From: a virus
Strand: one strand, 5' to 3'
IMG/VR virus record: IMGVR_UViG_3300000956_000002
Coordinates: 1-64,000 of that record
Length of the DNA stretch: 64,000 bases
Shown here: positions 8,313 to 62,758 of the stretch, piece after piece
Layout of the letters: each line of letters begins with the position of its first letter
How positions within the stretch are numbered: the stretch's first letter is position 1
Program-made: the position numbers and the translations under genes
The notes under the pieces: model-generated
What the model was told of the DNA's origin: nothing
The model's database searches: none
Seen by the model: the letters and a program-made list of their open reading frames with translations, nothing else

Positions 8313-8341
8313 TCCCCCACCCCAAACAAAAGGAAAAGCCG

Positions 8342-8620: not shown

Positions 8621-8850
8621 GCATTCAAGAACTGCTATCAAAATTCGAGCCAGCCAAACTGAAGGTGCAATTCCTTCACGAGTGCCTGTCTGACCTTCAG
8701 GCAAATAAGAAATGCGCCAAGGTGACTTTTGAGACTGATGCGATTACGCCGAACTCACTGGTCGGAGAGACTGAGCCAGTTGGAATAATTGTTTGGATAC
8801 CGCGCGATGACTGGAACGAAATGAAGAAAGGCCGACAAAATGAACGATGA
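8617..8850 (+). CDS. hypothetical protein
   Basis: GTGA overlap, GGAGG upstream. Confidence 0.6.
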   Translation: MSIQELLSKFEPAKLKVQFLHECLSDLQANKKCAKVTFETDAITPNSLVGETEPVGIIVWIPRDDWNEMKKGRQNER

Positions 8851-9086
8851 GTTGAGGGAAATCTTTTCATGGGTGGTATTCATCATGATACCGGTTTCAG
8901 CTTTTCTTATTTTATATAGCCGAGAGATTTTCGGCCCAACCCCACCAAAGGAACAAGCGAAAATATGAACAACATTCAAATCTTCGTTCTAAGCCTGACA
9001 ATGTTTGTTCTGGAATTATTCGACCGCGTAAAAGCGTTACCCTCACTGTCCGTATTGCGAAGGCTGCGGCTGTCATCGGTGCAACA

Positions 9087-9584: not shown

Positions 9585-9888
9585 TGAGAAACAGCAGGAG
9601 AACGAAGAACGGCCTTTAGAGGTTGAAGTTCTTGATGGTCGCATTGTCATTTCGATTGGTATTGAGACCTTGAAATATTGCCACAATCAACTTGAGGAAC
9701 TTCAGGTTAAAGAGGGTTGCGACTGTAAGGGCTTTTTAATCGAGGACGCCGAGGGGTTTGCTCGCGATTTCGTGAACCAGCTTCATAAAGATAGGGAGGA
9801 TGGATCAACCAAGCTGACTGATCTGTTTGACGAAATCATGCTGGACACTGCGAACAATGGGAGCATCCACACCAGAAATTCAAAATGA
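9577..9888 (+). CDS. hypothetical phage protein
   Basis: Coupled ORF (ISIGIETL...EDGSTKL..LFD). Confidence 0.6.
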   Translation: MNSEKQQENEERPLEVEVLDGRIVISIGIETLKYCHNQLEELQVKEGCDCKGFLIEDAEGFARDFVNQLHKDREDGSTKLTDLFDEIMLDTANNGSIHTRNSK

Positions 9889-10856: not shown

Positions 10857-10957
10857 GTGCGAGAAGGTATTCTTAAAACTGATTACCCTGATGAACGTCC
10901 GTTGATGTACGGACTCCAAACTGCTAGCGTTTTGGTGAACCCGCTAAAGGAACGGAA

Positions 10958-11173
10958 ATGAAAGCTATGCAGTGCTTGTACTTCGGTCTCAGTCGCAAAG
11001 GTGACGTGGTTATTCCAGCGAAACTTTACAAGACCCAGGAGGAATTGGATCGGGCCATTGAGGATATAAAAAGGCAGTGCGGCGCCGCACGGATCAAAAT
11101 CAACTCTCGTGATTCTTCGGAATTCCGCGTTTCCCGCCTGAAAGCTTCGATCGTCCAGGAATCGCGTATTTAG
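10958..11173 (+). CDS. hypothetical protein
   Basis: ATG with AAGGA upstream. Confidence 0.45.
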   Translation: MKAMQCLYFGLSRKGDVVIPAKLYKTQEELDRAIEDIKRQCGAARIKINSRDSSEFRVSRLKASIVQESRI

Positions 11174-11348
11174 GCGGCGGCTCGTTCAGCACTGACGCGC
11201 GGGCGGCGGTGGCGCGCTCAAGTGTAGGCAGGAACCCCATGACACAATCTTCGCCGACGGAGGCTTCAGAGCGATTCTCGGCCTGCGCAATTGCTTTGAT
11301 GCGCTTCATTGCTTCTTCGTCGAGTCGAATCGAAAACGGAACCCTCAT
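11100..11348 (-). CDS. ribbon-helix-helix (Arc/CopG-like) regulator
   Basis: VPFSIRLDEEAMKRIKAIAQAENRSEASV. Confidence 0.7.
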   Translation of the reverse strand: MRVPFSIRLDEEAMKRIKAIAQAENRSEASVGEDCVMGFLPTLERATAARASVLNEPPPKYAIPGRSKLSGGKRGIPKNHES

Positions 11349-12531: not shown

Positions 12532-12548
12532 TTCCGTAATTTACGGAA
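12532..12548. promoter_or_regulatory. operator palindrome TTCCGTAATTTACGGAA
   Basis: Perfect 7-bp inverted repeat that recurs in intergenic regions. Confidence 0.65.
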
Positions 12549-34555: not shown

Positions 34556-34900
34556 TTCGAACGGAATACTGTTGGCTTCGCAGAGATTTTTGACGGCATC
34601 CTTTTCGGTGTGGCCCCACATGCAGCGTTCTGACTCTTCCATGATGCGGCAATAGCCGGCGATGATTTCAAATGGGTCATCGCTTTTGCAGTAGGAACGG
34701 TGGTCGGAATAACGTTCTTTGCCGTCGCCATCAAACGGCAGTAACATCGCCATCCATTTCGGAAACGCGCGCGTCGATTCTCCTGGGCAATTGTGCGTCC
34801 AGATGCCGTGCTTTTGCTTGAATACCTTGAGTTGAGATTTATCGCTTGGCCGCGGCGGATGATCTCGCGGCACTTCGAGGAGTAGGGGTTGGTTGCTCAT
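34517..34900 (-). CDS. hypothetical protein
   Basis: Last gene of leftward operon, ATGA-coupled. Confidence 0.55.
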   Translation of the reverse strand: MSNQPLLLEVPRDHPPRPSDKSQLKVFKQKHGIWTHNCPGESTRAFPKWMAMLLPFDGDGKERYSDHRSYCKSDDPFEIIAGYCRIMEESERCMWGHTEKDAVKNLCEANSIPFELPNDYRTPNQHQ

Positions 34901-35625
34901 TGTGATTTCCTTCGTTGAAATGGTCGCCGATTTTTTGGTTGATCACGCACCGGTATCCATTTGCAATTTGAAGGCTCGTAGTTGCCATTCACATCAACTC
35001 TTTCGATTGAATACCCAGGAGGACGCTCACCCATGTCCTGAAGGAAATTGTCGAAAGAATTTTTCCACCTATCACAGATAGCGATTCCGCGCCCGCCATA
35101 GTCTTTAAAAAATTCGTATTTGGGATTTAAGCACCGCGTTTTCATGTGACTCCAGCTAACATAGGCTGGAGATTGTTTGCTTCGACCGCGTTTGATTCTT
35201 GAGCAGCCGCACGATTTTCCGACCCCATTTTCAAGTTTTCTAAAAGACTTACTCACTTCTGCGCCGCAATCACATTTACAAATGCACGAGGGATAGCGTT
35301 GATTTATGGGAGATCGAAAAGATAAAATCGTCAAACGACCGTATCTTTTCCCGATGTAATCAGTGAATACAAACTTCGTCGTTTCGACTGGAATGTTTTT
35401 TGTCTTTTTTCGTCTCAGACACCCACAGGATTTAAAATGTCCAAAATTCAGGCGGTATCCTTTAAGTAACTTTTCTGATCCGCAGTCGCATCGACACATC
35501 CATATAGCGTCCCGTTTTTGATCTAAACCATGAAAGGAAACGACCAGTAACCTTGAGAAGCGCTTGCCTGTTAAATCCACAAAACGCGAGTGGGTTGGCT
35601 TTCTGGAATCAACGATTGTGATCAT
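34897..35625 (-). CDS. HNH-like homing endonuclease (YGGRGI family), copy 3
   Basis: Two GKRxxRL..CxCDCG..SCGC repeats; DYGGRGI; SIERVDVNGNYEPSNC. Confidence 0.82.
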   Translation of the reverse strand: MITIVDSRKPTHSRFVDLTGKRFSRLLVVSFHGLDQKRDAIWMCRCDCGSEKLLKGYRLNFGHFKSCGCLRRKKTKNIPVETTKFVFTDYIGKRYGRLTILSFRSPINQRYPSCICKCDCGAEVSKSFRKLENGVGKSCGCSRIKRGRSKQSPAYVSWSHMKTRCLNPKYEFFKDYGGRGIAICDRWKNSFDNFLQDMGERPPGYSIERVDVNGNYEPSNCKWIPVRDQPKNRRPFQRRKSQ

Positions 35626-39058: not shown

Positions 39059-39781
39059 TTACGGAAACTTCTGGTCATGGGTTTTGGGGTTGGGTGCCTG
39101 AAAGAATTCTGAATGCAGTTGCAGCCACGATTGGAACTTGTCCATTTCCTGATGCCGTAAGGCGGTCCAGTCGATTGGCCACCCCATCAACCATTCGCTC
39201 AACTGTGGGTTCTGCTTTCGACCCACATACGTTCCACGGCGTAAGGCTTTCTTCCTGGCGTTGGAACCGCCGCAATTGTCCCGGTCGCTCGCCCGCGGGG
39301 TAGGCCAAGACGAACAATCGTCGTCGCACATGTGGAGCACCAACGGAACATGCTGAAAACACTCCCCATCGCGCATCCATCCCCATTCCGGCAATGTCAG
39401 CAAGGACTCGGTTGAGTCCTCGAATAGCAAGGTCTGACGAGTTTTCAATGAACGCGAATCGTGGTCGAACTTCGCGAATGATCCGCGCGAACTCTCCCCA
39501 CAATCCTGAACGTTCACCTTCGATTCCGACACGGCATCCAGCCGGGCTGATATCCTGGCATGGAAATCCGCCGCAAACGATATCAACGCCGCGCCATGGC
39601 TTTCCGTCAAAGGTTCGAACGTCGTCCCAAATCGGGAACCATGGCAGGATTCCGTCTCGCTGGCGTTGGAGGAGGATTTGGCGGCAGTAAGGTTCAATTT
39701 CGACCGCACAAACAGTTCGATGCCCGAGAAGCATTCCGCCGAGGATTCCACCGCCGCATCCTGCAAATAGGTGTAACTCAT
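39059..39781 (-). CDS. overlapping alternative-frame MTase partner polypeptide
   Basis: 240-codon open frame nested on the MTase; WPTPRASD and NPQLSEWLMGWPIDWT (motif IX-like). Confidence 0.7.
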   Translation of the reverse strand: MSYTYLQDAAVESSAECFSGIELFVRSKLNLTAAKSSSNASETESCHGSRFGTTFEPLTESHGAALISFAADFHARISARLDAVSESKVNVQDCGESSRGSFAKFDHDSRSLKTRQTLLFEDSTESLLTLPEWGWMRDGECFQHVPLVLHMCDDDCSSWPTPRASDRDNCGGSNARKKALRRGTYVGRKQNPQLSEWLMGWPIDWTALRHQEMDKFQSWLQLHSEFFQAPNPKTHDQKFP

Positions 39782-39785
39782 TCAC
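39075..39785 (-). CDS. DNA cytosine-C5 methyltransferase, catalytic polypeptide
   Basis: LFAGCGG, GGFPCQD, ENS, HxRxR, GNGQVP; no motif IX. Confidence 0.9.
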   Translation of the reverse strand: MNELHLFAGCGGGILGGMLLGHRTVCAVEIEPYCRQILLQRQRDGILPWFPIWDDVRTFDGKPWRGVDIVCGGFPCQDISPAGCRVGIEGERSGLWGEFARIIREVRPRFAFIENSSDLAIRGLNRVLADIAGMGMDARWGVFSACSVGAPHVRRRLFVLAYPAGERPGQLRRFQRQEESLTPWNVCGSKAEPTVERMVDGVANRLDRLTASGNGQVPIVAATAFRILSGTQPQNP

Positions 39786-40251
39786 CCCGCTCCTCCCTGA
39801 CGCACTGTTCGTAGGCGGCGCCGAAGATTTGGGCGGATTCAACGCCGTTGGTTTCATTGTCGAGATTGGTGATCGTTATCACGGCGCCTTCCTGGCCTTC
39901 TGGCACGTCGATGATTTCAAAACTCCCCCTTTTGATGTGCTTCGAGGAATCGTTTGCGGGCAGCAATGAGGCAATCCAAGATTGTGGTGTATCCGTTATC
40001 CCCATCGCTACGGCCGTCCGATACGCGGAGTGCAACTGCGACTCCAAAGATCGAATTGCCGCGTTTAGCCACGCCTTTGTGTCGTCGTTTTGGAGGATGT
40101 ATCGCTGGCCGTTTTTCCTCATGCCGATCTTCTTGTCGTTTTTCTTCGACGGGACTCGGCCCAGGTTGCGGATGTGAAGAACCAGCGGCTCCGAGGTTTC
40201 GCTGGATAAACGACTCACTGGCGTTTGGGAATTTGGCGAGGATGGATTCAC
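39778..40251 (-). CDS. RusA-like resolvase, frame A (N- and C-terminal motifs)
   Basis: VPSKKN...AW; NDS..I...EGAVITI; lacks DxDN. Confidence 0.6.
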   Translation of the reverse strand: MNPSSPNSQTPVSRLSSETSEPLVLHIRNLGRVPSKKNDKKIGMRKNGQRYILQNDDTKAWLNAAIRSLESQLHSAYRTAVAMGITDTPQSWIASLLPANDSSKHIKRGSFEIIDVPEGQEGAVITITNLDNETNGVESAQIFGAAYEQCVREERGE

Positions 40252-46290: not shown

Positions 46291-46306
46291 TTCCGTAATT
46301 TACGGA
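46291..46306. promoter_or_regulatory. operator palindrome in switch region
   Basis: TTCCGTAATTTACGGA between divergent regulators. Confidence 0.68.
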
Positions 46307-46345: not shown

Positions 46346-46735
46346 ATGCCTGAAATCAATATAATCCTCAAACATGCCAGAAAATCGCGGGAATTAACGC
46401 TCGCACAGGTGTCGAAAGACACCGGAATACCACTCACGACACTGAACAGTTGGGAGCGCGGGGCGAATTTTCCGCGCGGGAAAAATCGGGAAATCATCGC
46501 GGAATACTATAAGATGCCGAAGGAATCGCTCGATTATTCGCTGGTGAACTCATCTGGTGGCCGAGAGTTCGATATTGGGCAAATCTCGCAGGCCATGGCT
46601 CAATCTGAATACGAGACAAGGCCAGTGATGCTTCATAAGTCTTACTGGAAAATGGCGGAAGATGTTCGAAAGAGCGCTGGCGACGTGGATTTCAATGAGA
46701 TGTTCGCGCGGCTTCTGAAGGCTGAGAGCAAGTAA
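46346..46735 (+). CDS. XRE/CI-like HTH repressor
   Basis: LKHARKSRELTLAQVSKDTGIPLTTLNSWERG..P. Confidence 0.82.
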   Translation: MPEINIILKHARKSRELTLAQVSKDTGIPLTTLNSWERGANFPRGKNREIIAEYYKMPKESLDYSLVNSSGGREFDIGQISQAMAQSEYETRPVMLHKSYWKMAEDVRKSAGDVDFNEMFARLLKAESK

Positions 46736-46834: not shown

Positions 46835-47308
46835 ATGGAGCCAATCAAGCCAATAGCACCGCCAGAAAGTAAAGACGGAAAGTTTCTGTGGAGATTTTGG
46901 TCGAAAGTCGAAAGGAAAGGTGAATGTTGGACCTGGATAAAGCCGGCGATTAACGGCTACGGATATTTTTGGTTTAAAGGGAAATGGATGCTGGCTCACA
47001 GGGTTTCGTATTTTCTAAAAACAGGAATTTTCTTAGACGGGCTCGTTCTTGATCACTTGTGCAGAAACAGAGCTTGCGTAAATCCAGACCATCTTGAGCC
47101 GGTAACTCAGAGGGAAAATGTACTTCGCGGAATTGGGCCGGTCGCTAAGAACAACGCTAAAACACACTGCAAGCGAGGACATCTACTCGAAGGGGAAAAT
47201 CTCATCAGATGCTCTGCGTTGAAGGGGTGGAGGATTTGCAAGAAGTGCGTGGCGGAGAAGCAGTCAAAAAGATACTTCGAAAAAAAGAAACAAAAGAAAC
47301 ATGCCTGA
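46835..47308 (+). CDS. HNH endonuclease
   Basis: CWTW..GYG, AHRVSY, DHLCRNRACVNPDHLE, THCKRGH. Confidence 0.88.
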   Translation: MEPIKPIAPPESKDGKFLWRFWSKVERKGECWTWIKPAINGYGYFWFKGKWMLAHRVSYFLKTGIFLDGLVLDHLCRNRACVNPDHLEPVTQRENVLRGIGPVAKNNAKTHCKRGHLLEGENLIRCSALKGWRICKKCVAEKQSKRYFEKKKQKKHA

Positions 47309-48695
47309 AATACTTCAAGACGATCTCGAAACCGATTATCAAAAGTCGCTGGCCGTCATAGCGGCGGATAAGAAGGCGAGCGTCAAACATCTTCAGCAGC
47401 GGCTCAAGTTAAGTTACGGGCGAGCGGCGCAAATCATGGCCAAGCTGGAGCGGGATGGAATCCTGGCGCCACCGCAAAAAGGCCAGGCCCGTGAGATTTT
47501 GTTCGATAAAATCGATGCTTTACTGCTTTCGTCCGCGTCCCCATCCGAGGCTCCACGTGTTCTAGCCGACGATGGAAAAGTCAGCAATTCGACTCCACCT
47601 CAGGTTGATTCCCCTGAGGCACTGACAGGCGCGGACGCTTCTTTAGTGGGCGGGTGGCGGAATGGAGACGCAGCCCTAGAAAAGCGGGAGGGCACCCCTT
47701 CCGCAATCGCCGGAAACGAAACGGGTCGCTCCCAATGCGATACGGCGGTTGAAAAGGGGTCGCAATCAATTGCAGGTTCGAGTCCTGCCCTGTCCACCAA
47801 TCCTATCAAGTTGTGCGTCATCGCATACCTGCCGAAGCCCAGCGAAAAATTCCATACGCTGGCGTTCCTCGAAAACCTGAAGCGCAATCCGCCGGCCCAT
47901 GACCTCATCACGTTCAGCGATTGCCCGGATTTTGGTGAGTATGGGAAGCCGACGGTGCGACTGGATTTGGAAGGCAAAAAATCGATCGAGGAATACTTCC
48001 CTGACTTGAAGGAGAAGGTTCACGGATTCGCCAACATTGCTTTCTATCTGGCCTTTTGCATCGCATGGAAAAACGGCTTCTCCCATTTCTTGTATGCCGA
48101 GATGGATTGCAGGTTTAGGAACAGAGGCCCGGATGGTTCGGTCAAGTGGGACGAATTTCTCGTCGCTGAATTCCTCGACGCCCAGGACGAAAGGCCGGTC
48201 GAACTCGTCGTTGGCGGAACGATGATGGTGGATAATCCGTATCGATCTGACGCGGAGACAGCGCAACGAACGAAGGAGTTGCTGGCTAAGTGGAATCCGA
48301 ATCTTACCAGCCGTGCTCCGAAGGAACGCAATAAGCCGATTGCCTGTCGAGCGCAACGAGGCGTCAAAGACAACACTTCGATGGTTGGCTGCAATGGCGC
48401 GGGAGCCGTTTACTCGGTTGCTGGACTTCGGGCGCTCTTTCCGGAAATCAAAAACTTTTCTGGCGCGACAGGGACCATAGCGACGTTCGCGAAAAACGGT
48501 TTGCCGTTCGATTGGGAAATCGCAAAACGACTTTGGTCAAGATACAAGTCCGCGGCCTTCGATTATGTCGCTCACCTGCCTTCAGAGTTCAGTTCGTTTG
48601 GTGACTCTGTTTCAACTGAGGACGAGCGGATGGACATGCTTAGAACGGCAAAGTGCGTTCTAGTTCATCCCGTTAAATCCCGCATTATTGAATAA
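47301..48695 (+). CDS. FtsK-gamma winged-helix domain fused to GT-A-like glycosyltransferase domain
   Basis: ASVKHLQQRLKLSYGRAAQIMAKLERDGIL..REIL; C-domain YAEMDC, NGAGAVY, LVHPVK. Confidence 0.7.
   Translation: MPEILQDDLETDYQKSLAVIAADKKASVKHLQQRLKLSYGRAAQIMAKLERDGILAPPQKGQAREILFDKIDALLLSSASPSEAPRVLADDGKVSNSTPPQVDSPEALTGADASLVGGWRNGDAALEKREGTPSAIAGNETGRSQCDTAVEKGSQSIAGSSPALSTNPIKLCVIAYLPKPSEKFHTLAFLENLKRNPPAHDLITFSDCPDFGEYGKPTVRLDLEGKKSIEEYFPDLKEKVHGFANIAFYLAFCIAWKNGFSHFLYAEMDCRFRNRGPDGSVKWDEFLVAEFLDAQDERPVELVVGGTMMVDNPYRSDAETAQRTKELLAKWNPNLTSRAPKERNKPIACRAQRGVKDNTSMVGCNGAGAVYSVAGLRALFPEIKNFSGATGTIATFAKNGLPFDWEIAKRLWSRYKSAAFDYVAHLPSEFSSFGDSVSTEDERMDMLRTAKCVLVHPVKSRIIE
47648..47798 (+). ncRNA. 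tRNA-like structure with ~80-nt extra arm, inside a CDS
   Basis: GGGCGGG/CCTGTCC acceptor + ACCA; D-arm GCG-GAATGGAGA-CGC; T-arm GCAGG-TTCGAGT-CCTGC. Confidence 0.68.
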
Positions 48696-49486
48696 TGAGC
48701 AAAGGATACGTCAGCTACAGACCGGAAGGACGACTTGGCAACGCGCTCTACCAGGCAAGCGCTGCAATGGCGTATGCGTGGGACCACGGCATGGAGTTTT
48801 CGATGCCTACGACCAGCCGTGATCCTAAATGGTGTCCTACTTATCTGCCGCATTTGGCAAAGCCAGATTACGATCCGTCGCTGCCGGTGATCATGGTGGA
48901 GGAGCGCGGGTATCGGTTCCAAAAACTGCCGTGGGATGACCGCTGGAAAGATGGGCACAACATTGTGCTGAACGGATTTTTTCAAAGCCCGAAATACTGG
49001 CAGCATCATCGCGATCGGATTTTGGAGTCGTTTGGCTTCCAGTGGCGCAAAATGGAAATGTTTTGGTGTGCGGTGCATGTCCGTCGCGGCGATGCGCTTC
49101 GTTATCCAGAAAAACATTTGCTCCAAACGAAGGAATGGATCGAAGCGCAGATGCGAAAGTTTCCGCATTACAGCTTTCGATTTTTCTCAGACGACTACCC
49201 ATGGTGCCGCGAGCAATTCGGGCATCGCATCGACTGCTACTTCGATGATTTTCCGAGGTGCATGGAAGTCGCCGACGACCGTCCCGAAGTTCAAGACCTC
49301 GTTGACGCAGCGTGTTGTTCGCATTTGATCGGCAGTTCCTCGACGTTCGCGGCCTGGATTTATTTCTTAAATCGCAATCCCAACAAGCGCGCAATTTTCC
49401 CGAAGGAGTGGCTGAAAACCGGGTGGGAAGGAACGACACAGGAAACGTGGCGGGACGTGCTTCCAATGGAGGTCGAACGCGCATGA
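48695..49486 (+). CDS. GT11 alpha-1,2-fucosyltransferase-like
   Basis: GRLGN, GFFQS, AVHVRRGD, FSDD, SSTF..W. Confidence 0.88.
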   Translation: MSKGYVSYRPEGRLGNALYQASAAMAYAWDHGMEFSMPTTSRDPKWCPTYLPHLAKPDYDPSLPVIMVEERGYRFQKLPWDDRWKDGHNIVLNGFFQSPKYWQHHRDRILESFGFQWRKMEMFWCAVHVRRGDALRYPEKHLLQTKEWIEAQMRKFPHYSFRFFSDDYPWCREQFGHRIDCYFDDFPRCMEVADDRPEVQDLVDAACCSHLIGSSSTFAAWIYFLNRNPNKRAIFPKEWLKTGWEGTTQETWRDVLPMEVERA

Positions 49487-49598
49487 AATCCAAACCGCAA
49501 AAACGCTGCCACGGCTCGCGCCAAAAACATTCGTTCATCGATGGCATTTGCGAATGGTGTGGCACGACGCGCAAAGAGGCGCGGAAGAGTAGTCGTAA

Positions 49599-50270
49599 AT
49601 GAAAATTGATCCTGAACAGTTAGTTGAAGCAGGCCAAATGCTCATTGGTTTGGGCAGGCATATTCAGAGGACGTTTCCCGTCCCGAATGCGGTCGGATCT
49701 CAGTATGGCGAATTTGAAGTCCTGCGGAAATTGCTGCCCCACGACAACGGAATTTACGTCGATGTGGGCGCTAGCTGGCCTAAAGATTGTTCGAACACCT
49801 GGCAGTTTTATGAAATCGGCTGGCGAGGATTATTGGTTGAACCTTTGCCGGATTGTTGGCCGGCGATTCTGCATCAACGTCCGGAGGATTACCTCTGCAC
49901 GACCGCGGCCTCGGACAAAGATGGGTTTGCAACTTTGCATCGTTGCCGGTCGGTAAGTTCACTCGATTCAACTTGGCGCAACGATAACGACGGGTCGATG
50001 CCGGTGATGACGGAACGGCTGGAGACGATTCTGAAGCGCTATAAGGAGGTCGATTGGACCAAGACCGATTTGCTGTCGATCGATGTCGAAGGCCACGAAT
50101 GGGAGGTTCTGAACGGGATTGATTGGGGCACCTTCACGCCAAAGGTGATTATCGTGGAATATGCCGATCAAAACGGAAAAGACATTTCCGCAGAGTGGCA
50201 TCCCATTTTGATGAACCGCTACACCGTTCACGCGGAGAATCGGCTGAATAGGATTTACGTGAGAAAATGA
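49599..50270 (+). CDS. FkbM-family methyltransferase
   Basis: YVDVGA, GWRGLLVEP, LLSIDVEGHE. Confidence 0.88.
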   Translation: MKIDPEQLVEAGQMLIGLGRHIQRTFPVPNAVGSQYGEFEVLRKLLPHDNGIYVDVGASWPKDCSNTWQFYEIGWRGLLVEPLPDCWPAILHQRPEDYLCTTAASDKDGFATLHRCRSVSSLDSTWRNDNDGSMPVMTERLETILKRYKEVDWTKTDLLSIDVEGHEWEVLNGIDWGTFTPKVIIVEYADQNGKDISAEWHPILMNRYTVHAENRLNRIYVRK

Positions 50271-51055
50271 GCGACCTCATCGTAGCTTTTTGTCCGACGT
50301 TCAGCCGCGCGCACTTACTCGCGCGCGCGATCGCTGCATGGGAGGCGCAAACTTATTCCGACCGCCTGTTGATTTGTGTGGATGACTCCGGCCAGTTGGA
50401 CTCGCAAAAGAGCGATCAAGGAAAATGGGAAATCGTGTCGTTGCCGCGGCGCTGTCGAAGTCTGTCGGAGAAAAACAATCTCTGCATTTCGCTCGCGCCG
50501 GCAGGAGCCAAAAAGTTCATGAAGTTTGACGACGACGACCTGGCTTATCCGTGGGCGTGTGAAGCGGCCGCTGAAGCGCTCGATCGCGGGATGATTTGCC
50601 AGCCAAGGTTCGCGATCGATTACGTCGAGAACGAATGGGTGATCACGCCGACTCATTCCCATTCACCAAAGAAGTGCAGCCTCGAAGCGTCGTTCGCGTA
50701 CCACGGAACTTGGTCATTTACCGAAGAGTTCTACTTGAAGATGCGCGGATACGCTCCGATGCTCTATGCTGGCGACGATGGCGAACTCGATAAGCGCCGG
50801 CGCGAGATGAAGATTCGCTCTGTCGGTTTGGATAAGCGATACCCGCCTTACTACAAATATTTCGCCATGTATCACCGGGCGCATCCTGAAGCGTTGCTTG
50901 GTTCACCTGGGCCAATAAGTCAGCGCGGGCCTTCGATGGAAGCCTACATCAACACTCCACGCGCGCCTTACATCGGTCGTTTGCCAGAATATAAAGGGCC
51001 GCCCATTTGGCTCGATCCGCTGCCGACTAAAACTTTGGAACGGAGGAGATGGTGA
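50267..51055 (+). CDS. GT2-like glycosyltransferase
   Basis: CPTFSR..L, QTY, VDDS, FDDDD, GDD. Confidence 0.82.
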   Translation: MSDLIVAFCPTFSRAHLLARAIAAWEAQTYSDRLLICVDDSGQLDSQKSDQGKWEIVSLPRRCRSLSEKNNLCISLAPAGAKKFMKFDDDDLAYPWACEAAAEALDRGMICQPRFAIDYVENEWVITPTHSHSPKKCSLEASFAYHGTWSFTEEFYLKMRGYAPMLYAGDDGELDKRRREMKIRSVGLDKRYPPYYKYFAMYHRAHPEALLGSPGPISQRGPSMEAYINTPRAPYIGRLPEYKGPPIWLDPLPTKTLERRRW

Positions 51056-51059
51056 ATTT

Positions 51060-51629
51060 ATGAAACAAATCTCAAATCGCAACCAACTGGCCGAACTCTT
51101 GATCGAACTTGGGCTCACCGGAGAAGCGGCATTTATCGGCTGTGCGGAGTGCTATTACGAAAGTTATTTCGCCGAACGCTGGCCGGGTCACGCAAATTGG
51201 ATCGATCCCTGGCGTGTGCTGAATACTCCCGGATTTTCAGGACATGGCGAGGACACAGATAAAGGACAAGAGGAACGCTATCACCGTATTCTCGCCAAGG
51301 CGCAGAAGTTCAACGGGCGCGTTAAAGTCATTCGGGCGACCAGTGAAGAAGCGGCGCCGAGGTTTGGGAATGGCACGCTCGATTTCGTCTATATCGACGC
51401 CGATCACTCGCTGGATGCGGCTCGGCAGGATATTGCGTTGTGGGCGCCGAAGGTGAAACGCGGTGGTATCCTGGCGGGTCATGATTACCTCGAAGGGATG
51501 CACAACGGCCAACTCTACGGCGTGAAGCAAGCCGTCGCGGAGTTCGCCGCGAAAAGCAATCTCTCGGTCAACGTGACTCAGGAATCCGATTGGCCAAGCT
51601 GGTGGCTGCGGAGGGAGCCAGCACGATGA
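51060..51629 (+). CDS. class I SAM methyltransferase (Methyltransf_24-like)
   Basis: IDPW, LDFVYIDADH, W..VK.GGILAGHDY, GVKQAV. Confidence 0.85.
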   Translation: MKQISNRNQLAELLIELGLTGEAAFIGCAECYYESYFAERWPGHANWIDPWRVLNTPGFSGHGEDTDKGQEERYHRILAKAQKFNGRVKVIRATSEEAAPRFGNGTLDFVYIDADHSLDAARQDIALWAPKVKRGGILAGHDYLEGMHNGQLYGVKQAVAEFAAKSNLSVNVTQESDWPSWWLRREPAR

Positions 51630-52315
51630 ACGCACTTATCACGCTCGCGACCTCGGAGGTATCAGCCATCGCAAAACCATTCATCGAGAACCAACGCGCG
51701 TACGCCGACCGATGGGGATATGAATTCATTTGCTACCCGCAGAGGTATATCGATTGGGAACATCTCCACCCGTCGTTTTCCAAGGTGCCGCTTATCGACA
51801 GGGCGCTGAAGGCGGATTTTGAATATATCGTGTTCGCCGACGCTGATGTGGCGTTCACGAATTTCCAAAAGGATATTTCGGATATTTTGCGCACGAGGTT
51901 GGCAGAACGTCCCGAGCTTTGGTTGGCTGGAAAAGAGCAGCGTAACTGGATTACCTGGAAATATATTTGCAATGGTCTGCTGGTTATTCGCAACACGCCA
52001 GACGCGCGCGCGTTCATGGATAAGTGGATCGATTATTGCCTCAACGGAACGCCGAACATTGAACCCGGCAAGCGCGTGATGATGCGCGATCATCCCTGGG
52101 AGCAATTCCCATTTGATCAGTTGATTCGCGAGACGCAGTACCACGGGGCATACGCTGCGCTGTCGGCGGAGATCGGCGGGTTCTGTCCTGAAATCTGGAC
52201 AGACGGCGATGAGTGGAAGCCGGGGCATTTGACGATGCACTTCGCTGGGCCTGCAACCTTCGAACGTCGCGCCCAGGTTTTCAAAGAGAAATATCAACCA
52301 CTGATCGTTTATTGA
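51626..52315 (+). CDS. GT34/GMA12-MNN10-like glycosyltransferase
   Basis: YA..WGY, FSKV, DAD, NG...IRN, WEQ, HFAG. Confidence 0.75.
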   Translation: MNALITLATSEVSAIAKPFIENQRAYADRWGYEFICYPQRYIDWEHLHPSFSKVPLIDRALKADFEYIVFADADVAFTNFQKDISDILRTRLAERPELWLAGKEQRNWITWKYICNGLLVIRNTPDARAFMDKWIDYCLNGTPNIEPGKRVMMRDHPWEQFPFDQLIRETQYHGAYAALSAEIGGFCPEIWTDGDEWKPGHLTMHFAGPATFERRAQVFKEKYQPLIVY

Positions 52316-52316
52316 T

Positions 52317-52970
52317 ATGCTAACTTCCTTCGACGATCTCTTCACGCGATATTCCGTCCGCCCGAACGGAATCCTTCACCTTGGCGCTTCGGACGATGGG
52401 CGCGAATTGCCGCATTATGCGAAGGCGTGTCCCGGCGGCCCCATTCTACTCGTCGAGGCCCTGCCTAAAGTCTGCGCGCGACTGGAGAAGAAGCTGACGC
52501 ATCCTAACATGCGAGCAATTTGCGCGTGCGTCAGTGATAAGGATGGCGAGGAGCGTGATTTTCACGTGGCCAACAACGCGGGCCAGAGCAGTTCTTTACT
52601 GTCGTTTGGAACCCACACTGTTGAGCATCCCAGCGTCCAATTCATCGGCGACACAAAGCTTGTTACGACTCGCGTCGATACGTTGCTAGCGAAAGAACTC
52701 GCGGTGATGGCGCAACGTCCGTGGTTCGGAAACATCGATCTTCAGGGGGCCGAGTTGATGGCGCTTCGGGGGTTCGGACCATTTCTCGAAGCATTCTCAT
52801 GGCTCTATATCGAAGTGAACAAACGCCCACTCTACCAGGGAGCGCCGATGATTGGCGAACTGGATGCGTTTTTAGCACCGCACGGATTTAATCGCCGAGA
52901 GACTTGGTGGTTTCAGCATTCGAACGGGCAGGAAGCCGGATGGGGGGATGCTATCTGGACACGGAGGTGA
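52317..52970 (+). CDS. FkbM-family methyltransferase
   Basis: LHLGA, QSSSLL, NIDLQGAEL, IEVN..LY, WGDA. Confidence 0.88.
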   Translation: MLTSFDDLFTRYSVRPNGILHLGASDDGRELPHYAKACPGGPILLVEALPKVCARLEKKLTHPNMRAICACVSDKDGEERDFHVANNAGQSSSLLSFGTHTVEHPSVQFIGDTKLVTTRVDTLLAKELAVMAQRPWFGNIDLQGAELMALRGFGPFLEAFSWLYIEVNKRPLYQGAPMIGELDAFLAPHGFNRRETWWFQHSNGQEAGWGDAIWTRR

Positions 52971-53313: not shown

Positions 53314-53724
53314 ATGGCCAATCGCAAACGCACACGCAAACTTAAGAACACCGAAATCAAAAACAATCTGCGTGCTTTTTCCGACGCGCATAAGAAGCAC
53401 AAGCGGGAACGCGAAGAGGCGGAGATGAAGGAGCAGCTTGGCCGCGCGCGATTGCTGTACGACGAATTCAAGCGGGCAATGACGGAATCTGGTCCGGCGA
53501 AAACGTGGGATGAGATTTTAGTGGCGCTGGAGGCGTTGAAGGACGCGATCAAAAAGGTGTGCAAGAACAAGTTCGTCCGGAACGCAATGATGCGCGAGGT
53601 CAACCTTGCGGAGCATAGATTTCTCACGGTGTATGGACCGAAGTCCAAAACCGAATTGAAAACGCGAATGAAAATGCCGCATCGCGATGACGTGGATGGC
53701 GGTGGTGATCCGAGGAACAATTGA
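53314..53724 (+). CDS. hypothetical basic helical protein
   Basis: Coupled ORF. Confidence 0.55.
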   Translation: MANRKRTRKLKNTEIKNNLRAFSDAHKKHKREREEAEMKEQLGRARLLYDEFKRAMTESGPAKTWDEILVALEALKDAIKKVCKNKFVRNAMMREVNLAEHRFLTVYGPKSKTELKTRMKMPHRDDVDGGGDPRNN

Positions 53725-54242
53725 TGGACGAATTGGTTCTAACTCCAGATCCGCCGCCAGTTCATCGACAGGCATTTGCTGGATTGACCGAAGGAAAAGA
53801 TGAATGGCTTACCCCCCCCCATATCATCAAATCGCTGGGCGAGTTTGACCTCGATCCATGTTCGCCGATCGAACGCCCATGGCCGACGGCGAAACAGCAT
53901 TATCATCGGCTCGACAACGGACTAATGAAAGAATGGGCCGGTCGGGTTTGGATGAATCCTCCGTACGGTCCGGAGACTTCAAAATGGATGTCGCGACTCG
54001 CGGCTCATGGAAATGGGATTGCGTTTATCTTCGCTCGAACTGAGACCGAGACTTTCTTTAAACACGTGTGGCCAGTCGCAAATGCCATCCTGTTCCTAAA
54101 AGGGCGTGTCCGTTTCCATCACGTTAGTGGTCGTGCCGCCGATGCCGCTGGTGCGCCGTCGTGCCTCATCGCTTACGGGAATGAGAACGTCGAGGCGTTG
54201 GGAAAATCCGGAATTCCCGGAAAACTTCTCAGGATTCAATAA
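53724..54242 (+). CDS. phage DNA N6-adenine methyltransferase (Dam-like)
   Basis: DEWLTPP, FDLDPC, WMNPPY, FARTET, GRVRF. Confidence 0.88.
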   Translation: MDELVLTPDPPPVHRQAFAGLTEGKDEWLTPPHIIKSLGEFDLDPCSPIERPWPTAKQHYHRLDNGLMKEWAGRVWMNPPYGPETSKWMSRLAAHGNGIAFIFARTETETFFKHVWPVANAILFLKGRVRFHHVSGRAADAAGAPSCLIAYGNENVEALGKSGIPGKLLRIQ

Positions 54243-57200
54243 CGCGCCATCCCCCGCCCGACGCGCGAAAGACTCGGCGCTCTGAGACTGACGCGATTGG
54301 TATTCTGATCGCGCTGCCGAACTCCAATCATGGCGCCAGCTTGCGCCCAATTCTGCTGGGCCTGCTGGATTTCAGTAGCGAGATTGGCTCCGGGTTGAGC
54401 GGCGGCGCGGCGCATCATTTCAGCGCGCTCGATGGGGGTCATTCGGCGGGTCAGTGCGCGCGTTTCCGGATTGCGCGAGCGCCAGTAATTTTGCACGGCT
54501 CTCACCGGATCCTTATTGCCCATGCGCAAGTTGGCCTGGACGGCTTCGCGTGCGGCGCGTTGGAATCCGGCGCGATCGCCCCGGAAAGCTGCGTTATCCA
54601 TCTTCTGCTTCCACGGGGTAGATTCGTCAATGCCGCGGGCGACAGCGCCTTTATAGGCTGGACGAATGAGATCAGGCGTCGCGAATCGTTTGATGTCGGC
54701 GACGGCGTTGGCGCCGGCGCGTCGGCCTTCCTGAGAGTCGAGGCGATTGATGACGATCTTGGAATCCGGGATGAATTTGGCAGCCATGTCAGGCAGACCG
54801 AACATGGGATCACCGCTGGCGACCATTCCGTGAATCCAAGATGCGATGGACTTGCCCGCTTCCCAAACGGCGAGGGTGGGTTCAAAGCTGGCGCGCGCCG
54901 GGGTGTTGGCCGGGATGAGGAGGTTGCCGAGGATTCCCAACAGCGGCACGCTTTCGAGCCCCAGGCGGGCAACACCGGCGGCGCCGCGGCCAAGCGACTG
55001 TTCCTCCCATGGCAGGCGGTTTTGCGATTCCTGATTGTAGAGCGCCCGGCGGAGCATGCGGGCCACGAGTTCGTCCTGAAGTTGGCCGCCGGCGCCGGTC
55101 ATGGCCAGAGCCAACCCAGCGAGGGCCATGGAGCGCGCCCACAGTTTCATCTTGCCGGTTTCGGTGTTGGTCGGGACCGCCATGGATTCCTCCCAATCAG
55201 CGAAGGAGCGAAGTGACCAGCCGTAGAGCGGCCGGACCATGTTGGACAGGAACGAGCCGTCCTTGAACTTCAACGGCGAGTTCGAGAACGATGCGCGGTT
55301 CATCTTGTTGATGAGGGTTTCGGTCAAAGCCTGGCGATTCTCGGTCGTCAGGAATTGGGCCGACTGCGGGTTGGACTGGAGTTCAGCCATGAAGGCGGCG
55401 GCGCGCTCGTCGAAGCTCATGCCCGCCATTTGATACGTGCGGCGGACTTGAGACAAAGTTTGTTCACTCAAGCCGAGTTCCTTCGGGCTCAGGCGATTGA
55501 CTGGATCGGCTGGGTCCTGAAGGTTGAACGTCCGAGGTAATCCGCCACGCATCCAGTTGGTATAGAGTTTCTTCAGAGAATCCTGCATGCCCTGGACTGG
55601 ACCCCACTGCGAATTGACGGCATTCCACATGGCGCCGTTGATGGCCGCGTCACCCATGGTCGGGAACCCGGCGTTGGCCAGGGCGAGAAGAGTGGCCTCG
55701 AACAGCCCGGCGGCGTATCCCCCAACCTTGGCGGCGCCTTCGAACTCATTGGCTGGGATGCCGCCGCGGTAGAGGATGGAGCCGAGGATTTGATTGTCGA
55801 ACTGCGCAACTTTATCCGGAAGTTGATACATGCCAGCGGCTTCGAGTTCGCGAACCGATTGCAGCCGGCGGGGGACGTTGACGGACAGTTCGCGGATGAC
55901 ATCGCGCAAGGCGGACAGGTAAGCCTCGCGGGCGTTACCTTTGAGGAGTTGTGGGACACCGCGGGCCATGCCGCGCAGTAGGTAGCCGAACGACTTCGGG
56001 ACCCCGACGAAGGCGAAACTGGCGAGGATTTTAGCCGCTTCCGCCTTGGTGAACAGCATCGAGCGCAGGGTGGTGTTGAACTCGTCCATGCCGGCGGCGC
56101 GCAACTGGCGTCCGAGGAAGATCGACGACACGTTTTTCATCGTCGTCACGATGTTTCCGATGAGCGAACCGACGAGCGCGCCAGCCCCGCGGTTGAACAG
56201 GGTGTTGAAATCCGAGTTCGACACCGACGGATTCTGTAAATCGTTCAGAACACCTTGGATGCGTGCGCGACGGTCCTTTAAGTTCTGCCAGTTATCGAAG
56301 GTTTGGCCGCGGCGCCGTTCCACTTCTTTGAGGGCAATGGCCGACTGTTTGGCGTTGGGTTTGCCAAGGCGTTCGAGTTCCTTAGCCTTAGCGCTGAGAT
56401 CGGATTCCTGGCGTTCGAGGTCTTTATCGATGGCCTGAAGGGTGGCGACGACGCGATCGACGGCCACGCTCTGCATGCCGGCGGCGTGGTTGGACACGTC
56501 ATCGGTGGTGGTGAAGCCGGTGCGATAGAACGTCCATGGCGCGAGGGCATCGCCGCGGGCCTGGGTGAAGCTGTTCTTGGCGTCACCGGATTTGCCACCC
56601 TGCTCGGCGGCCGCGACCTTTTCCTGCACGGCGTTGGACCAGTTGGATACGATGCGACCGAACTCCTCGAGTACGATTTCTTTGGCTTGGTCTGGCGGGA
56701 TGGTACTCGAGCTTGCGAGTTCGTTGGCCAAGGCATCGATCGTCGGGATGACGTTCGGGTTGGCCTTCATCATGTTGGCTGCGACCTCGAAAGCGCCGCC
56801 CTTGCCGTCAAAAATGGTGCGCTTCGCGAATTCCGGGTTGCGATCAATCAAAAGGCTGGCGCCGACCTGTGGCCAGAGTTGGTTCAAGGCAGCTTCAATG
56901 GCGGCCGGGTCGCCGGCTTTGACCGCATCGGAGACGGCTTTGGCTTGGGCAGCCAGCGAATAATCAAACATCCGCGGCACCAGATACGGGCTCGTCCGGA
57001 GGGCTGACCGGTAGTTCGAGGTCTTTTTGAGCCCGCGGGCGTCCTTGGTGATCTGTTCGTCGAACTTGGCGGCGAGATTGAGGGCGTCGAACCCGGCCTT
57101 GGATTGGGCCTCCAGATGCGCCATATCCTCGCGGGTGACGACTTCACCGGAAGAGAGGGTGTCGCCGACGTTGTAGCCGCCCTGTTGACGTTGCCATGAG

Positions 57201-60200
57201 GCGGCGAGTTCCTGGCCAACCCGTTGCTGATAGATGCGGTTGGCTTCAACGATGGAGCGGCCGCGGAGATTGTTCCACGTCAGTCCATGGCTTTTCATGG
57301 CCGCCCGCTGAGTCATCGGCAGCGTGTGGACGGCGCGTTCGAACCAATCCCGCGACCATTTGTGCATCTGATCGGCGCGATTCAAGACCGACCGAGCCTG
57401 GCCGACGAGGCGCGAACCGGACTTCGAGATGGCGGATCCGATAATGGAATACGCCTGTCCCCACAACGGCGACTGGTTTTCGGGCATGATGTGCTGGAGC
57501 CCGCCGTAGTAGTTTTTGAGCAGTTCGAGGTTGTGCGCGTGATAACGGCGGGTGGGATCGTCTGCGTTCTGCGGGTTGGCCAGCCAGTTTTCGAGGAAGC
57601 CGATGGCCTTGCGTTGTTCATCCCAGCGTTGGCGGAGATGGACGACGTTGCCGTCGAGGACTTCGTGGCCGATGCCGATGGTGGCGCCGGACATGGGCAG
57701 CGGCGGGGCGCCGTTCACGCCGGGGACGACCGGGAGGGTGATGGTAGAACCCGCGTCGTCGGCGCTGCGGAGGGCTTTGCCGGGCTCAGGACTGCCGCCC
57801 CATGAGGTTTGATCGTTGAGGATTTCCTTCCGGAGCGCCTGGAATTGAGGATCGGCTTTGATCCTGGCGGCGATTCCGCCGGCATCGACGGCTGCCAACA
57901 GGGGTTCGAGTTCGGACAACATCTCTTCTTCGAGTTCTTTGAAGGCGAACTCGGCGGACATGGCGTTGCGGACCTTACGTTCGCGATCGCGCATCGCCCG
58001 GCGGACAGTGGCCACCGGGTCTTTCGAGAAGTCGTCGGCCAACTTTTTGGCCATGCCGTTGAGTTGCGCGCGCAAGCCGGTTTGCTTGGCGAGATTGGCA
58101 GCTTGGATTCTGGCCGCGAGCTTCGGTGACTTGGCGAGGATGTAACTGGCCCACTTGAGGAGATTCTGATTGTTGAGCGGTTGGCCGGTGGAACGTTTGA
58201 TGTCCTTGTAAATTTCGAGGATGGATCGTCCGCCGCCTTGGCCGGTGAATAGCGCGTTCTGCCCCTCGGGTGTTGACGACAGGGCCGTCACCATGTCGTT
58301 GAGCGTTTGTTCCATGGCGACGGTGGATTCGCTGGCCTCGCGGATGCCGCGGAGTTCGCCCTGCAACACCGCCATGTCGCGATCGGTCTTGGCTTCCTGC
58401 TTTAGCGCCGCGGTCGCTTCTTTGATGGCAGAGTCGAACACCGCTTTGGAATTCGTGAGGATGGCCTGCGCGGCTTGATTCTGCGCCGCCTTGGCTTGCA
58501 CGCGGGCGATGAAATCCTGGAAATGGCGCGAGGTCAGTTTCTTGAACGCCTTCGAACTGTCGTCGAGAACCTGCTGGAGAATTTCTTCGAACCGCAGGAT
58601 GGATTGGCCACCTTCGCCGGCAAGGCGCGCGCGACGATATGGGTCGTTGGCCAGCCGGGCTTTCATCTGTTGGTAGGTTTCGCGACCTTGAGGATTCAGT
58701 TGCTCGCCGATGTCGCGAATGCCTTTCCAGTTGCGGTAATCGAAAGCGTTTTGGACCTTCGGATCGGCGGTGTTGACGCCGAATTGATCGAGGATGTTCG
58801 TCACGTCGGCAGCCTGGGCGAGTTGCGATTCGCCTTCGATCTGCTGCTCCATGGCGGACGACGCGAGGTTGGCGGCGTTGATCGCCTCGTTGGCATCGGT
58901 GACGAATGTGCCGCGTTCAATCGCGCGCTCAAACGCCGGTTGCGCATCATACTTCTGGCGTCCTTCGAGGATGTCGCGGTAAACGCGTTCGCTGGCCGTC
59001 GGGTCTTTGAGTAAACCTTTGAGCCCTTTCCATAATTGCGCGAACCATTGTTTGATGCGGTTGATGATGCCGGGTGAGCGTTGTTCGAGAGTTTCCTGAG
59101 CCAGTCGATCGCCGAAAATCTTGGCAGCGTACTCGTCGAGGTTGATGAACGGGTAGAGGTCCATCGACCAGCCGGGCTCTCTGACGCGGAATTGGAATTC
59201 AACGCTGCTGAGTTTTCCGTCGCGGATTTCTTGAGGCGCGTTCGCCGGCATTTTGGCCAGGCGTTCAGCTTCGAGCGCGGCGCGGTCAGCTTCTGGCAAT
59301 GATTGAATGAGGATGTGAAAGATTTCGTGCGCCGCAGCATCGGGCTTTGCTCCTTCAGCCAATCGCACGAGGCTTCCCAGCATACCGCCTTTGAGCATCA
59401 CTTGCCCTTGGAACCCACCGCCAATGTAACGACGGAGTTCGAGAGTAAGCGGACCGGAGTTCAATCCGCTGGCCTGAAAGATTTCGTGCGCTCGGAGAAG
59501 GACTTTCTTCGTCTGCGGACTCAAGGCGGAGGCATTGACGAGAGTCGGGATGTTGGCATCGGTTGCTCTGCCGATTGCCACCGATGGGCCTTGCGGCGGT
59601 GGAGTATTGACAGGTTCTGTGACGAGAGTACCTTGGCTTCCTTCCGCCTTCAGGGGAGCCGTTTGGGGCGTCGATCCTCGGGGTGACGGAGCAGCAGCAC
59701 CAAACTGTTGGCTGTTGCCGTTTGCTCTCCGCATTGTTCCCTTGTCGATATTCAACACCTGTTCGGAAGTGAGCGTCTGCGTTCCAAACTTCGGGCCGTC
59801 ATCGATCGTCACCGACTGCAACATTGTCTCATCATCGGGACGCGTCTTGACGTTCGTGACTGTGAAGCGCTCGCCTTGAATCTTGAACTTATCGCCGACG
59901 GAGAGTTCATCGCTGACAATCGGCTTGGTGTTCTTGCGCTCCTTCGCGGCGACGGTTTGGAATTTGGCATCCTGAGTGGCCTGCTTTACTTCGGAATAGA
60001 AAGCCTCGCGGTCGGACTTCCGTTTCTTCGGCGCCTCGATGATTTGATTGAGCAGCGTTTCAGGATCGATCGGGCGACCAGTGTTTTGCTCAACGCCTTG
60101 CGCGGCCACGTCTGGAGCCGATGCGGTTGGACTATCGACGAACAATTTGGGCATCGCCTTTTGGGCAGCACGCCAGAGGTCCGCGTGTTCGGATTTTTCG

Positions 60201-62212: not shown

Positions 62213-62250
62213 ACTGAGGGTCCTATACTCTGAATTGGCACTTGACGCCA

Positions 62251-62265
62251 TCCGTAAATTACGGA
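62251..62265. promoter_or_regulatory. operator palindrome TCCGTAAATTACGGA next to TTGACG
   Basis: Same motif family as 12532 and 46291. Confidence 0.65.
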
Positions 62266-62347
62266 ATAGGTTACGCGTCCGAACAATCGGTGTGGAAGCC
62301 GAGGGTAAGCGACCGGAACGGTTCAGATGAAATTTTGGGTAACTCCA

Positions 62348-62403
62348 AACCCGCTCGAAAAACGTCTTACCACGTCTTCCACCGAGCGGGTTCTCTTTTT
62401 TTT
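62348..62403 (+). terminator. terminator/attenuator hairpin
   Basis: AACCCGCTCG...CGAGCGGGTT + T8. Confidence 0.65.
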
Positions 62404-62758
62404 CCGCGTTTGGACCGTGAGCCGTGCCGCGATATAGGTTGCACGAACTCCGGCGGCCCAACTTCGGTTGGTGCTGGTGAAGGCGTCGGCGAGGACGAGA
62501 ACTCCCCGGCGTGGACGACAAGGAAAACTTCAGTCCTGTGCGGCTGGCGGGATGAGTACAGCTAAGAGTGCAGAGTAACGCCTGCATCTCCTGCCGGATT
62601 ATCGGCGTACGACGCCACAGGATTGAATTTTTCTTTGCCTTCCGACGTTGGCTTTTAAGCCTGCACTCCATTTAGGAGGGGTAGGGGTGGTTGTCTTATC
62701 GGGTTCGTTTTCTTTTGGCTTTCCCTCTCCCGCCTCTTCTGTCAGTAGCTTTAGGTGT

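Follow-up and report, generated by a model that had tools for sequence, protein, structure and literature searches.

The virus record IMGVR_UViG_3300000956_000002 of IMG/VR is a complete genome of 80,252 bp with terminal repeats (a 46-bp exact repeat), and bases 1-64000 of it make up the window of 64,000 nucleotides analysed here; genome-wide counts cover the whole 80 kb. On its + strand the window carries an open reading frame (ORF), 47301-48695, that runs without an internal stop and encodes a protein of 464 residues (P0001), in which an FtsK-gamma winged-helix domain is fused, through a long disordered linker, to a glycosyltransferase (GT) domain of the GT-A fold. We are highly confident of both domain assignments and of the fold. 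The fusion is a rare new architecture made from known parts, with an unexpected tRNA-like passenger in its linker, and we tentatively read the protein as a GT that is tethered to DNA and belongs to a cytoplasmic pathway for methyl-glycans, with protein a more likely acceptor than DNA. The three parts of the protein, as delimited with AlphaFold2 (AF2), its predicted local distance difference test (pLDDT) and the comparisons named, are:

47337..47504, + strand: FtsK-gamma winged-helix domain, residues 13-68 (Pfam, alignments to Protein Data Bank (PDB) entries, AF2)
47535..47804, + strand: disordered acidic linker, residues ~79-168 (pLDDT 23-33, composition, shared motifs)
47805..48692, + strand: GT-A glycosyltransferase domain, residues 169-464, from about 166 (AF2, Foldseek, VIA)

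The C-terminal domain has no sequence match in Pfam, PHROG or the PDB. A preliminary description of this gene had likened it to GT-A enzymes and proposed a Foldseek comparison as the check; when this was run, every listed top match in the PDB was a GT-A protein. The AF2 model, built on a 72-sequence alignment, reached a pLDDT of 92.3 and a predicted template modelling score (pTM) of 0.90; an alignment of this depth was needed, as modelling with 5 sequences only gave a pLDDT of ~25-55. Foldseek returned 97 PDB matches at E<=1e-3, the top listed ones lying between 3e-5 and 5e-4 and including XXYLT1, glycogenin, ABO transferases, SpsA, Kre2p and others. By VIA-align, 512 chains had Z>=8, with listed best values from 12.7 to 10.2: B3GalT6 (9SP7) at 12.7, Manic Fringe (2J0A) and B3GalT5 (8ZWP) at 12.0, the PBCV-1 capsid GT A64R (2P73) at 11.6 and glycogenin (GT8, 6EQL) at 11.1, with which the domain shares its fold over ~180-210 residues. 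A search of BFVD returned viral GT8-like and GT-A proteins, and the ESM Atlas agrees. The model consists of the single Rossmann-like alpha/beta/alpha domain that characterises the GT-A fold.

A phmmer search of 1.84 billion representative sequences recovered 148 clusters of this family at E<=1e-3, 99 of them at <=1e-10. Its members mostly stand alone at 250-290 aa, none is named, and nearly all come from metagenome assemblies. Others are fused to DUF6492, GT2, GT4 or Stealth domains, which marks the family as a glycan-building one. Three members (P0009, P0032 and P0020) have basic N-terminal extensions of 80-100 residues, two of which start MPRKK. Across the 72 aligned sequences, in full-length numbering, E267, D269, R271, G306, D404, R443 and H456 are invariant and K459 is near-invariant. 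The motifs that they mark are:

48099..48113, + strand: E267-M-D269-C-R271, the invariant ExDxR, directly after the fourth core strand (model 103-107)
48393..48413, + strand: N365-G366-A-G-A-V-Y371 loop, with G366 near-invariant and NGA..Y as the family consensus
48510..48512, + strand: D404 of an 'AWD' motif, invariant in the 72-sequence alignment
48666..48677, + strand: H456-P-V-K459, with the invariant His and near-invariant Lys; the last model strand is 295-297

ExDxR would represent the DXD-type motif for metal and nucleotide-sugar binding in an ExD variant, D404 would be a catalytic base of the xED type, and H456 is a candidate for the C-terminal metal-binding His of GT-A enzymes. D404 and H456 stand in the order expected for the catalytic Asp and the metal His, as judged from sequence order. 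Because the succession of acidic motif, Gly loop, Asp and C-terminal His is that of the GT-A core, we infer a metal-dependent nucleotide-sugar transferase. The ExD, NGxxxY and HPVK elements first picked out in the gene are thus all conserved in the family, the one correction being that the spacing of the second is strictly NGxxxxY. With the solved GT-A enzymes the domain shares a DXD-type acidic motif behind the fourth strand, and H456 is a candidate for their C-terminal His; unlike them the domain has ExDxR in place of DXD, and its identity to solved GTs is 7-13%. Pfam searches with the domain and 71 relatives gave nothing bar one match at E 0.01, a PDB search with the 72-sequence profile was empty, and profile comparison (hhalign) of the family with the GT34-like and GT2-like proteins encoded by the neighbouring genes was not significant. 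The low identity and the non-significant profile comparisons point to a new sequence family within a known fold, and since there is no Pfam or PDB sequence match and ExDxR replaces DXD, the family was not placed in any named GT family.

At the N-terminus, FtsK_gamma (PF09397) matches residues 13-68 with E 2e-13 and 50.3 bits against a cut-off of 30.6; a profile search of the genome scored this domain at 54.3 bits and found no second gamma domain. By phmmer against the PDB, the P. aeruginosa and E. coli FtsK-gamma structures (2J5O, 2VE8/2VE9 and 2J5P) were matched at E 9e-6 to 1e-4. Pfam detected no alpha/beta ATPase motor domain of FtsK/SpoIIIE translocases in the ORF, so that a gamma domain without its motor, as originally described, is what the gene encodes. 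The AF2 model of the domain shows helices at 3-23, 28-35 and 39-51 followed by short strands at 55-65 that form a wing (pLDDT 73-88), that is, the three helices and beta wing of a winged helix; Pfam also gives it a weak score as HTH_24, a helix-turn-helix (HTH) family.

The DNA-reading surface is where the domain departs from FtsK. E. coli FtsK reads its DNA motif KOPS (FtsK orienting polar sequences) by N1296, R1300 and E1303, with a contribution of E1306, and the triple Ala mutant is KOPS-blind (PMC2533119, PMC2680272). In the alignment with the FtsK-gamma structures the recognition helix is Y39-E50, and N1296, R1300 and E1303 fall on G40, Q44 and A47, E1306 being kept as E50. G40 is invariant in the five homologues, with position 44 reading Q/Q/K/E/K and position 47 A/G/D/A/A. 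The KOPS motif GGGNAGGG occurs 3 times (1 + 2) in 80 kb, which is no enrichment. With the KOPS-reading residues replaced, the name KOPS reader does not fit this domain, and that element of the preliminary description is not supported. The homologues conserve the wing Arg R64 and, in helix 3 and its surroundings, the framework of Y39, R41 (in most), I45, E50 and G53. Retention of the scaffold and of the wing arginine makes general or differently specific DNA binding plausible, and we consider it rather probable that the winged helix binds DNA.

The protein therefore shares with the FtsK gamma domains their winged-helix family, helix-3 framework and wing Arg, and differs in that it lacks the motor, carries the domain at the N- and not the C-terminus, has G/Q/A for N/R/E and has a GT as partner. 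Motor-less gamma modules were found in 163 cultured phage records, where they mostly form the C-terminus of RdgC-like recombination proteins encoded next to SSB. The phage modules (RdgC-like::gamma of Vibrio phages K242 and Valp1; 'FtsK gamma domain protein' of Vibrio phage 448O51-1) resemble the present one as portable add-ons at ~30-35% identity; unlike it, they are C-terminal and have DNA-handling partners. Among the partners of phage gamma modules a sugar transferase is the odd one out.

The possibility had been raised that the fusion might be missing from relatives, with the two domains expressed separately. It is kept in all close homologues: four proteins (P0002-P0005) with 47-54% identity over 99% of the query all have PF09397. 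When an N-domain profile was run over 155 family proteins it found one further carrier only, P0007 (531 aa), which restricts the gamma-GT fusion to six protein clusters. Of the carriers' contigs, two are ~80 kb long, the present record and that of P0007 (79.7 kb). The fusion thus appears, from the sequences compared, to be conserved and confined to a small clade. No relatives came up when IMG/VR, JGI metagenomes and GTDB genomes were scanned with the fusion alignment, P0007 and P0166 likewise not being found; a word-based search that used just the N-domain brought back nothing except the query.

The gene stands in a string of + strand genes whose neighbours overlap or abut, in the order 15-bp palindrome, Xre-type HTH gene, HNH gene, the gene studied here, glycan cassette, two unknown ORFs and Dam methylase. 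Its first 8 nt overlap the 3' end of the HNH gene that precedes it. The annotated members of the string (MT, methyltransferase) are:

46346-46735, + strand: Xre-type HTH gene, first gene of the string
46835-47308, + strand: HNH endonuclease, directly 5' of the studied gene
48695-49486, + strand: GT11-like cassette gene
49599-50270, + strand: FkbM MT, cassette gene
50267-51055, + strand: weak GT2, cassette gene
51060-51629, + strand: Methyltransf_24, cassette gene
51590-52315, + strand: GT34-like cassette gene
52317-52970, + strand: FkbM MT, last cassette gene, so that the remainder of the cassette spans 48695..52970
53721-54242, + strand: Dam-type N6-adenine DNA methyltransferase, last in the string (PF05869, E 1.6e-10; phrog_111)

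The gene does head a glycan cassette, as had been proposed, being the first enzyme gene of a set of four GTs and three methyltransferases. Membrane segments were predicted in none of the cassette products, and the Pfam/PHROG annotation of the cassette contains no flippase, polymerase, lipid-carrier primase or Gtr-type gene. From this lack of membrane segments and of flippase, polymerase and lipid-carrier primase we conclude that the pathway is cytoplasmic and would make a short methylated glycan. The occurrence of gamma modules on DNA-handling proteins and the Dam methylase in the operon suggest that the gene may have a DNA-linked role.

In the reading that we tentatively favour, the C-terminal part would be a soluble GT-A nucleotide-sugar transferase, probably Mn2+- or Mg2+-dependent, of an almost purely phage and metagenomic family, and together with the three further GTs and the three S-adenosylmethionine-dependent methyltransferases it would build a short O-methylated glycan, with the cytoplasm of the infected cell or lysogen as the site of synthesis. 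The N-terminal winged helix, having lost its KOPS-reading side chains, would bind double-stranded DNA with another specificity or with none, and a flexible tether of ~90 residues would hold the transferase at the nucleoid of phage or host. The first sugar would then be placed onto a target on or next to the DNA, for which a phage protein, DNA-associated or packaged, is a likelier candidate than a base. For the acceptor, a DNA-associated, virion or other protein is our provisional choice; a precursor of a host surface glycan seems unlikely, as does DNA itself, and the protein's own linker seems most improbable. Ser/Thr-rich tails were looked for on structural proteins, and only the T/P/A-rich N-terminus of ORF 17682-19304 was found, which is not decisive. 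This ORF (+ strand) encodes a 540-aa protein of the structural module, and its N-terminal stretch of ~30 residues is a conceivable O-glycan acceptor.

Soluble, cytoplasmic machinery that works without host ER/Golgi or lipid carriers is known for virion glycans, in the A064R-type GT and methyltransferase proteins of PBCV-1 and in the capsid and tail glycosylation of mycobacteriophages. The cassette resembles these systems in its soluble viral GTs and O-methyltransferases, and differs from them in that no glycosylated virion protein is known for this phage. The enzymes of those systems are not known to have a DNA-binding head such as this protein has.

Several observations weigh against a DNA-tethered enzyme. 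The base-reading residues of the gamma domain are replaced, and the N-domain is just mildly basic, with a pI of 8.0. Searches by tblastn with the whole protein, the C-domain and two other family members found no match in 50,697 phage records. RNA processing at a tRNA-like element in the linker (see below) may uncouple the domains, so that the two halves would also be made separately. In addition, a distant relative of the phage, G001 (81.5 kb), has a stand-alone GT-A family member at the syntenic position, with 31% identity, and no gamma domain anywhere in its record, from which it follows that the enzyme family as a whole does not depend on the tether. A split arrangement of gamma and GT-A proteins in G001 was considered and rejected, as the 88-aa ORF just 5' of the GT-A gene is not a gamma domain.

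Of the alternatives, the one closest to the preliminary description has the enzyme docked on DNA by its gamma domain and the first sugar transferred to a base by the GT-A domain; the other GTs and methyltransferases would extend this sugar, and the hypermodified DNA would resist host nucleases. We regard this as unlikely. It would explain a DNA-binding module on a GT, the same module being found otherwise on DNA-handling phage proteins, and it accords with the Dam methylase that ends the operon and with a C5-cytosine methylase 8 kb away:

39075-39857, - strand: C5-cytosine DNA methyltransferase, short form (Pfam PF00145, motifs in 4-181 of 324 only)

Phage GT-A enzymes that add mono- to trisaccharides to 5-hydroxymethylcytosine (5hmC) are known (bioRxiv 10.1101/2023.12.21.572611). 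Known phage DNA glycosylation, however, needs a hydroxymethyl-pyrimidine, provided by a ThyA-type hydroxymethylase or by a C5-methyltransferase with a TET-type dioxygenase (bioRxiv 10.1101/2023.12.21.572611), and profile searches of the complete 80,252-bp genome found no PF00303, PF12851, PF13640 or PF13532, that is, no ThyA-type hydroxymethylase, TET/JBP or other 2-oxoglutarate oxygenase. Without such genes no known hydroxyl acceptor is made on the DNA; this is an argument from absence, and a novel oxidase could be encoded among the unknown ORFs. The motif R...DDD...EDY/F of the phage and JGT DNA GT-As is likewise not present in the C-domain family, whose invariants are ExDxR, D and H; relatives elsewhere are fused to polysaccharide-type GTs, and three sugar-type O-methyltransferases are unknown in DNA glycans. 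The locus is therefore like the phage 5hmC clusters (C5-methyltransferase with 5mYOX/TET or ThyS and a GT-A or GT-B enzyme) in having a phage GT-A in a multi-GT cluster and a C5-methyltransferase in the genome, and unlike them in lacking 5mYOX or ThyS, in its active-site motif and in its interleaved sugar-type methyltransferases; no DNA-binding domain is mentioned on the GTs of those clusters (Pyle et al., bioRxiv 10.1101/2023.12.21.572611). Thus, of the proposal of a DNA-tethered transferase that primes glycosylation of DNA or DNA-bound protein, the gamma/GT-A fusion stands, and the priming on DNA is left unsupported by the missing hydroxyl-acceptor genes and DDD motif.

Lysogenic conversion is, in our estimate, also improbable. 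Here the cassette would act on the cytoplasmic side of the membrane to remodel a host surface glycan (O-antigen, capsule or S-layer), and the winged helix would be a regulator or passenger. A large terminase, a DnaB helicase, an exonuclease, an SbcC-like ATPase and a 1355-aa tailspike-like protein make the record phage-like by gene content, and a tyrosine integrase at 78902-79357 indicates a phage that is probably temperate, which favours this reading; by tblastn of the terminase and the studied protein it has no resemblance to cultured phages in the 50,697 records. Combinations of GT11, GT2 and FkbM, as found here, are typical of O-antigen loci, and peripheral polysaccharide GTs are soluble, as the cassette enzymes are. 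The family member of G001 lies beside a superinfection-exclusion-type gene and an integrase-family gene, which also fits. On the other hand, a pathway of this kind is not readily reconciled with a cassette devoid of flippase, polymerase, lipid-carrier primase and Gtr-type gene, and it leaves the conserved DNA-binding head and linker without a reason.

The linker bears on two further alternatives. As the preliminary description stated, it is long: ~90 residues, disordered by prediction, 55% of them S/T/P/A/G, with a pI of 4.4. Length and sequence differ among homologues, and short motifs persist (L/I-S-S-A-L, D-G-K-V-S and P-E-x-L..A-D-A-S in P0002-5 and P0007); P0009 has a linker-like extension that repeats SALT and SADAS motifs without a gamma domain. 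About half of the linker is encoded by the following element:

47648..47796, + strand: tRNA-like element in linker codons (residues ~116-166; Rfam RF00005)

The element matches RF00005 end to end (model 1-71) at 31.5 bits, the gathering threshold being 29. Its acceptor stem contains two G-U pairs, the D arm is of the Leu type, the T arm is perfect and ACCA is encoded; 92 nt replace the anticodon arm and variable region. ARAGORN made no call at this site, and folding is only modestly above that of shuffles (z -2.0). The 25 nt that form its 3' half recur without a mismatch at the 3' end of a tRNA-Phe in a Bacteroidetes metagenome-assembled genome (MAG), and the same 25 nt end free-standing tRNA-like genes of 107-150 nt in six IMG/VR contigs and a Spirochaetales MAG. 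Several of the free-standing long genes lie within phage tRNA arrays (jumbo-phage), and the long genes as a set are not called by ARAGORN.

RNase P and RNase Z might cut this element from the mRNA, the GT-A domain being made mainly alone from the TTG at 47811 and the fusion being minor or accidental in this phage; we judge this quite unlikely. The Rfam match is above gathering and ends 8 nt before the GT-A domain, the very position at which stand-alone family members begin, and in the ORF frame the linker has a codon score of just +0.07 to +0.09 against 0.33 +/- 0.18 for coding sequence. Off-frame sequence nevertheless scores -0.41 +/- 0.22, and in the linker the ORF frame beats both other frames. 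The frame, closed in all the free-standing copies, is open here over 490 codons, and four homologues that lack the T-arm peptide and the tRNA-like element have a fused ORF all the same. P0004 has AGSNPAL where P0001 has AGSSPAL, followed by a one-codon (3-nt) length difference before the GT domain; the P0004 peptide would be the T arm translated in the same frame, so that this homologue probably keeps the T arm and, by a 3-nt indel, the frame. From these comparisons we conclude that the tRNA-like element was probably captured in frame by a tolerant linker in the P0001/P0004 lineage. A further proposal, which we hold to be similarly doubtful, is that the protein is the primer of a DNA-anchored methylated glycan, which it would start either on the conserved Ser-rich linker of its own chain or on a non-canonical DNA acceptor of unknown origin, with RNase P at the tRNA-like element setting the ratio of tethered to free enzyme. 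If true, such priming would give a phage a novel means of shielding or marking its DNA.

There is only a slight chance that the winged helix is a transcription factor domain and the protein a trigger enzyme, like BirA or PutA, so that the cassette or other phage genes would be regulated by the enzyme that opens the pathway. An HTH fused to the enzyme that heads its own pathway is the classic layout, the N-domain has its weak HTH_24 score, and the operon starts with an operator-like palindrome that occurs genome-wide. This perfect 15-bp palindrome, TCCGTAATTTACGGA at 46292..46306, lies 40 nt 5' of the Xre-type HTH gene, and TCCGTAAWTTACGGA was counted at 6 sites against 0.07 expected:

12533-12547, 46292-46306 and 62251-62265, unstranded: perfect copies of the palindrome TCCGTAAWTTACGGA (pattern count)
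4927, 5056 and 19332, unstranded: copies with 2 mismatches, one of them just ahead of ORF 19372

It is likely the operator of a dimeric repressor, and it fits the Xre-type protein encoded right behind it better than it fits a gamma domain. No repeat or operator is found directly 5' of the studied gene, which overlaps the HNH gene, and a long disordered linker is atypical of such regulators. A scan of the operon for sigma-70 promoters and terminators found fewer sites than in shuffles and was uninformative.

Finally, self-priming in the manner of glycogenin, in which the GT-A domain would glycosylate Ser/Thr of its own linker and the other enzymes would extend the chain to give a DNA-bound glycoprotein, has in its favour the glycogenin match (Z 11.1) and an S/T/P/A-rich linker whose SSAL and ADAS motifs are kept even in P0007 and the gamma-less P0009, and is nonetheless highly improbable, as that match is no better than those to many other GT-A families and half of the linker in this phage is a translated tRNA-like element.

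The relationship with G001 extends to a giant ORF of 2,300-2,800 aa in the two phages, which share 23% identity over 1821 residues (E 1e-77). G001 has another sugar cassette elsewhere in its genome, with a DUF6492-like GT, two FkbM proteins, a radical SAM protein and a two-part transketolase/E1-like thiamine pyrophosphate enzyme, which suggests branched or C-methylated sugars.

54236-62671, - strand: giant 2811-aa ORF without Pfam or PHROG match (G001 counterpart in L002, 6728-13645, - strand)
G001:20000-38000 (L010), genes 4118-11227, - strand: G001 sugar cassette (domain annotation)

Both giant ORFs share an HEIxH metalloprotease-like motif near residue 1112. Ribosome-binding sites are A-rich, without a clear Shine-Dalgarno sequence, and there are fewer sigma-70-like promoters than expected; these features and the tRNA match in Bacteroidetes hint at a Bacteroidota-type host. 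The Xre HTH gene (46346) and the studied gene (47301) share the start ATGCCTGAAAT (MPEI). There are three HNH endonuclease genes (3001-3639, - strand; 34897-35625, - strand; 46835-47308, + strand), the third of which may be a homing insertion between regulator and cassette. A PAPS-reductase-family protein encoded at 5181-6347 (+ strand; PF01507, E 1e-12, weakly QueC-like) is, from its sequence, a possible nucleotide- or DNA-modification enzyme.

A GT-A family of ~150 clusters, almost all of which come from phage-sized contigs of uncultured origin, is now defined with a candidate catalytic set of ExDxR, D and H, and one of its members harbours a tRNA-like gene living in frame within a disordered protein linker. 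Should the winged helix indeed tether the GT to DNA, no glycan-building enzyme would have been known before to be targeted in such a manner, and a so far unexplored class of phage modifications, of DNA-associated proteins or of DNA, would be indicated that is of relevance to the escape from restriction and other defences.

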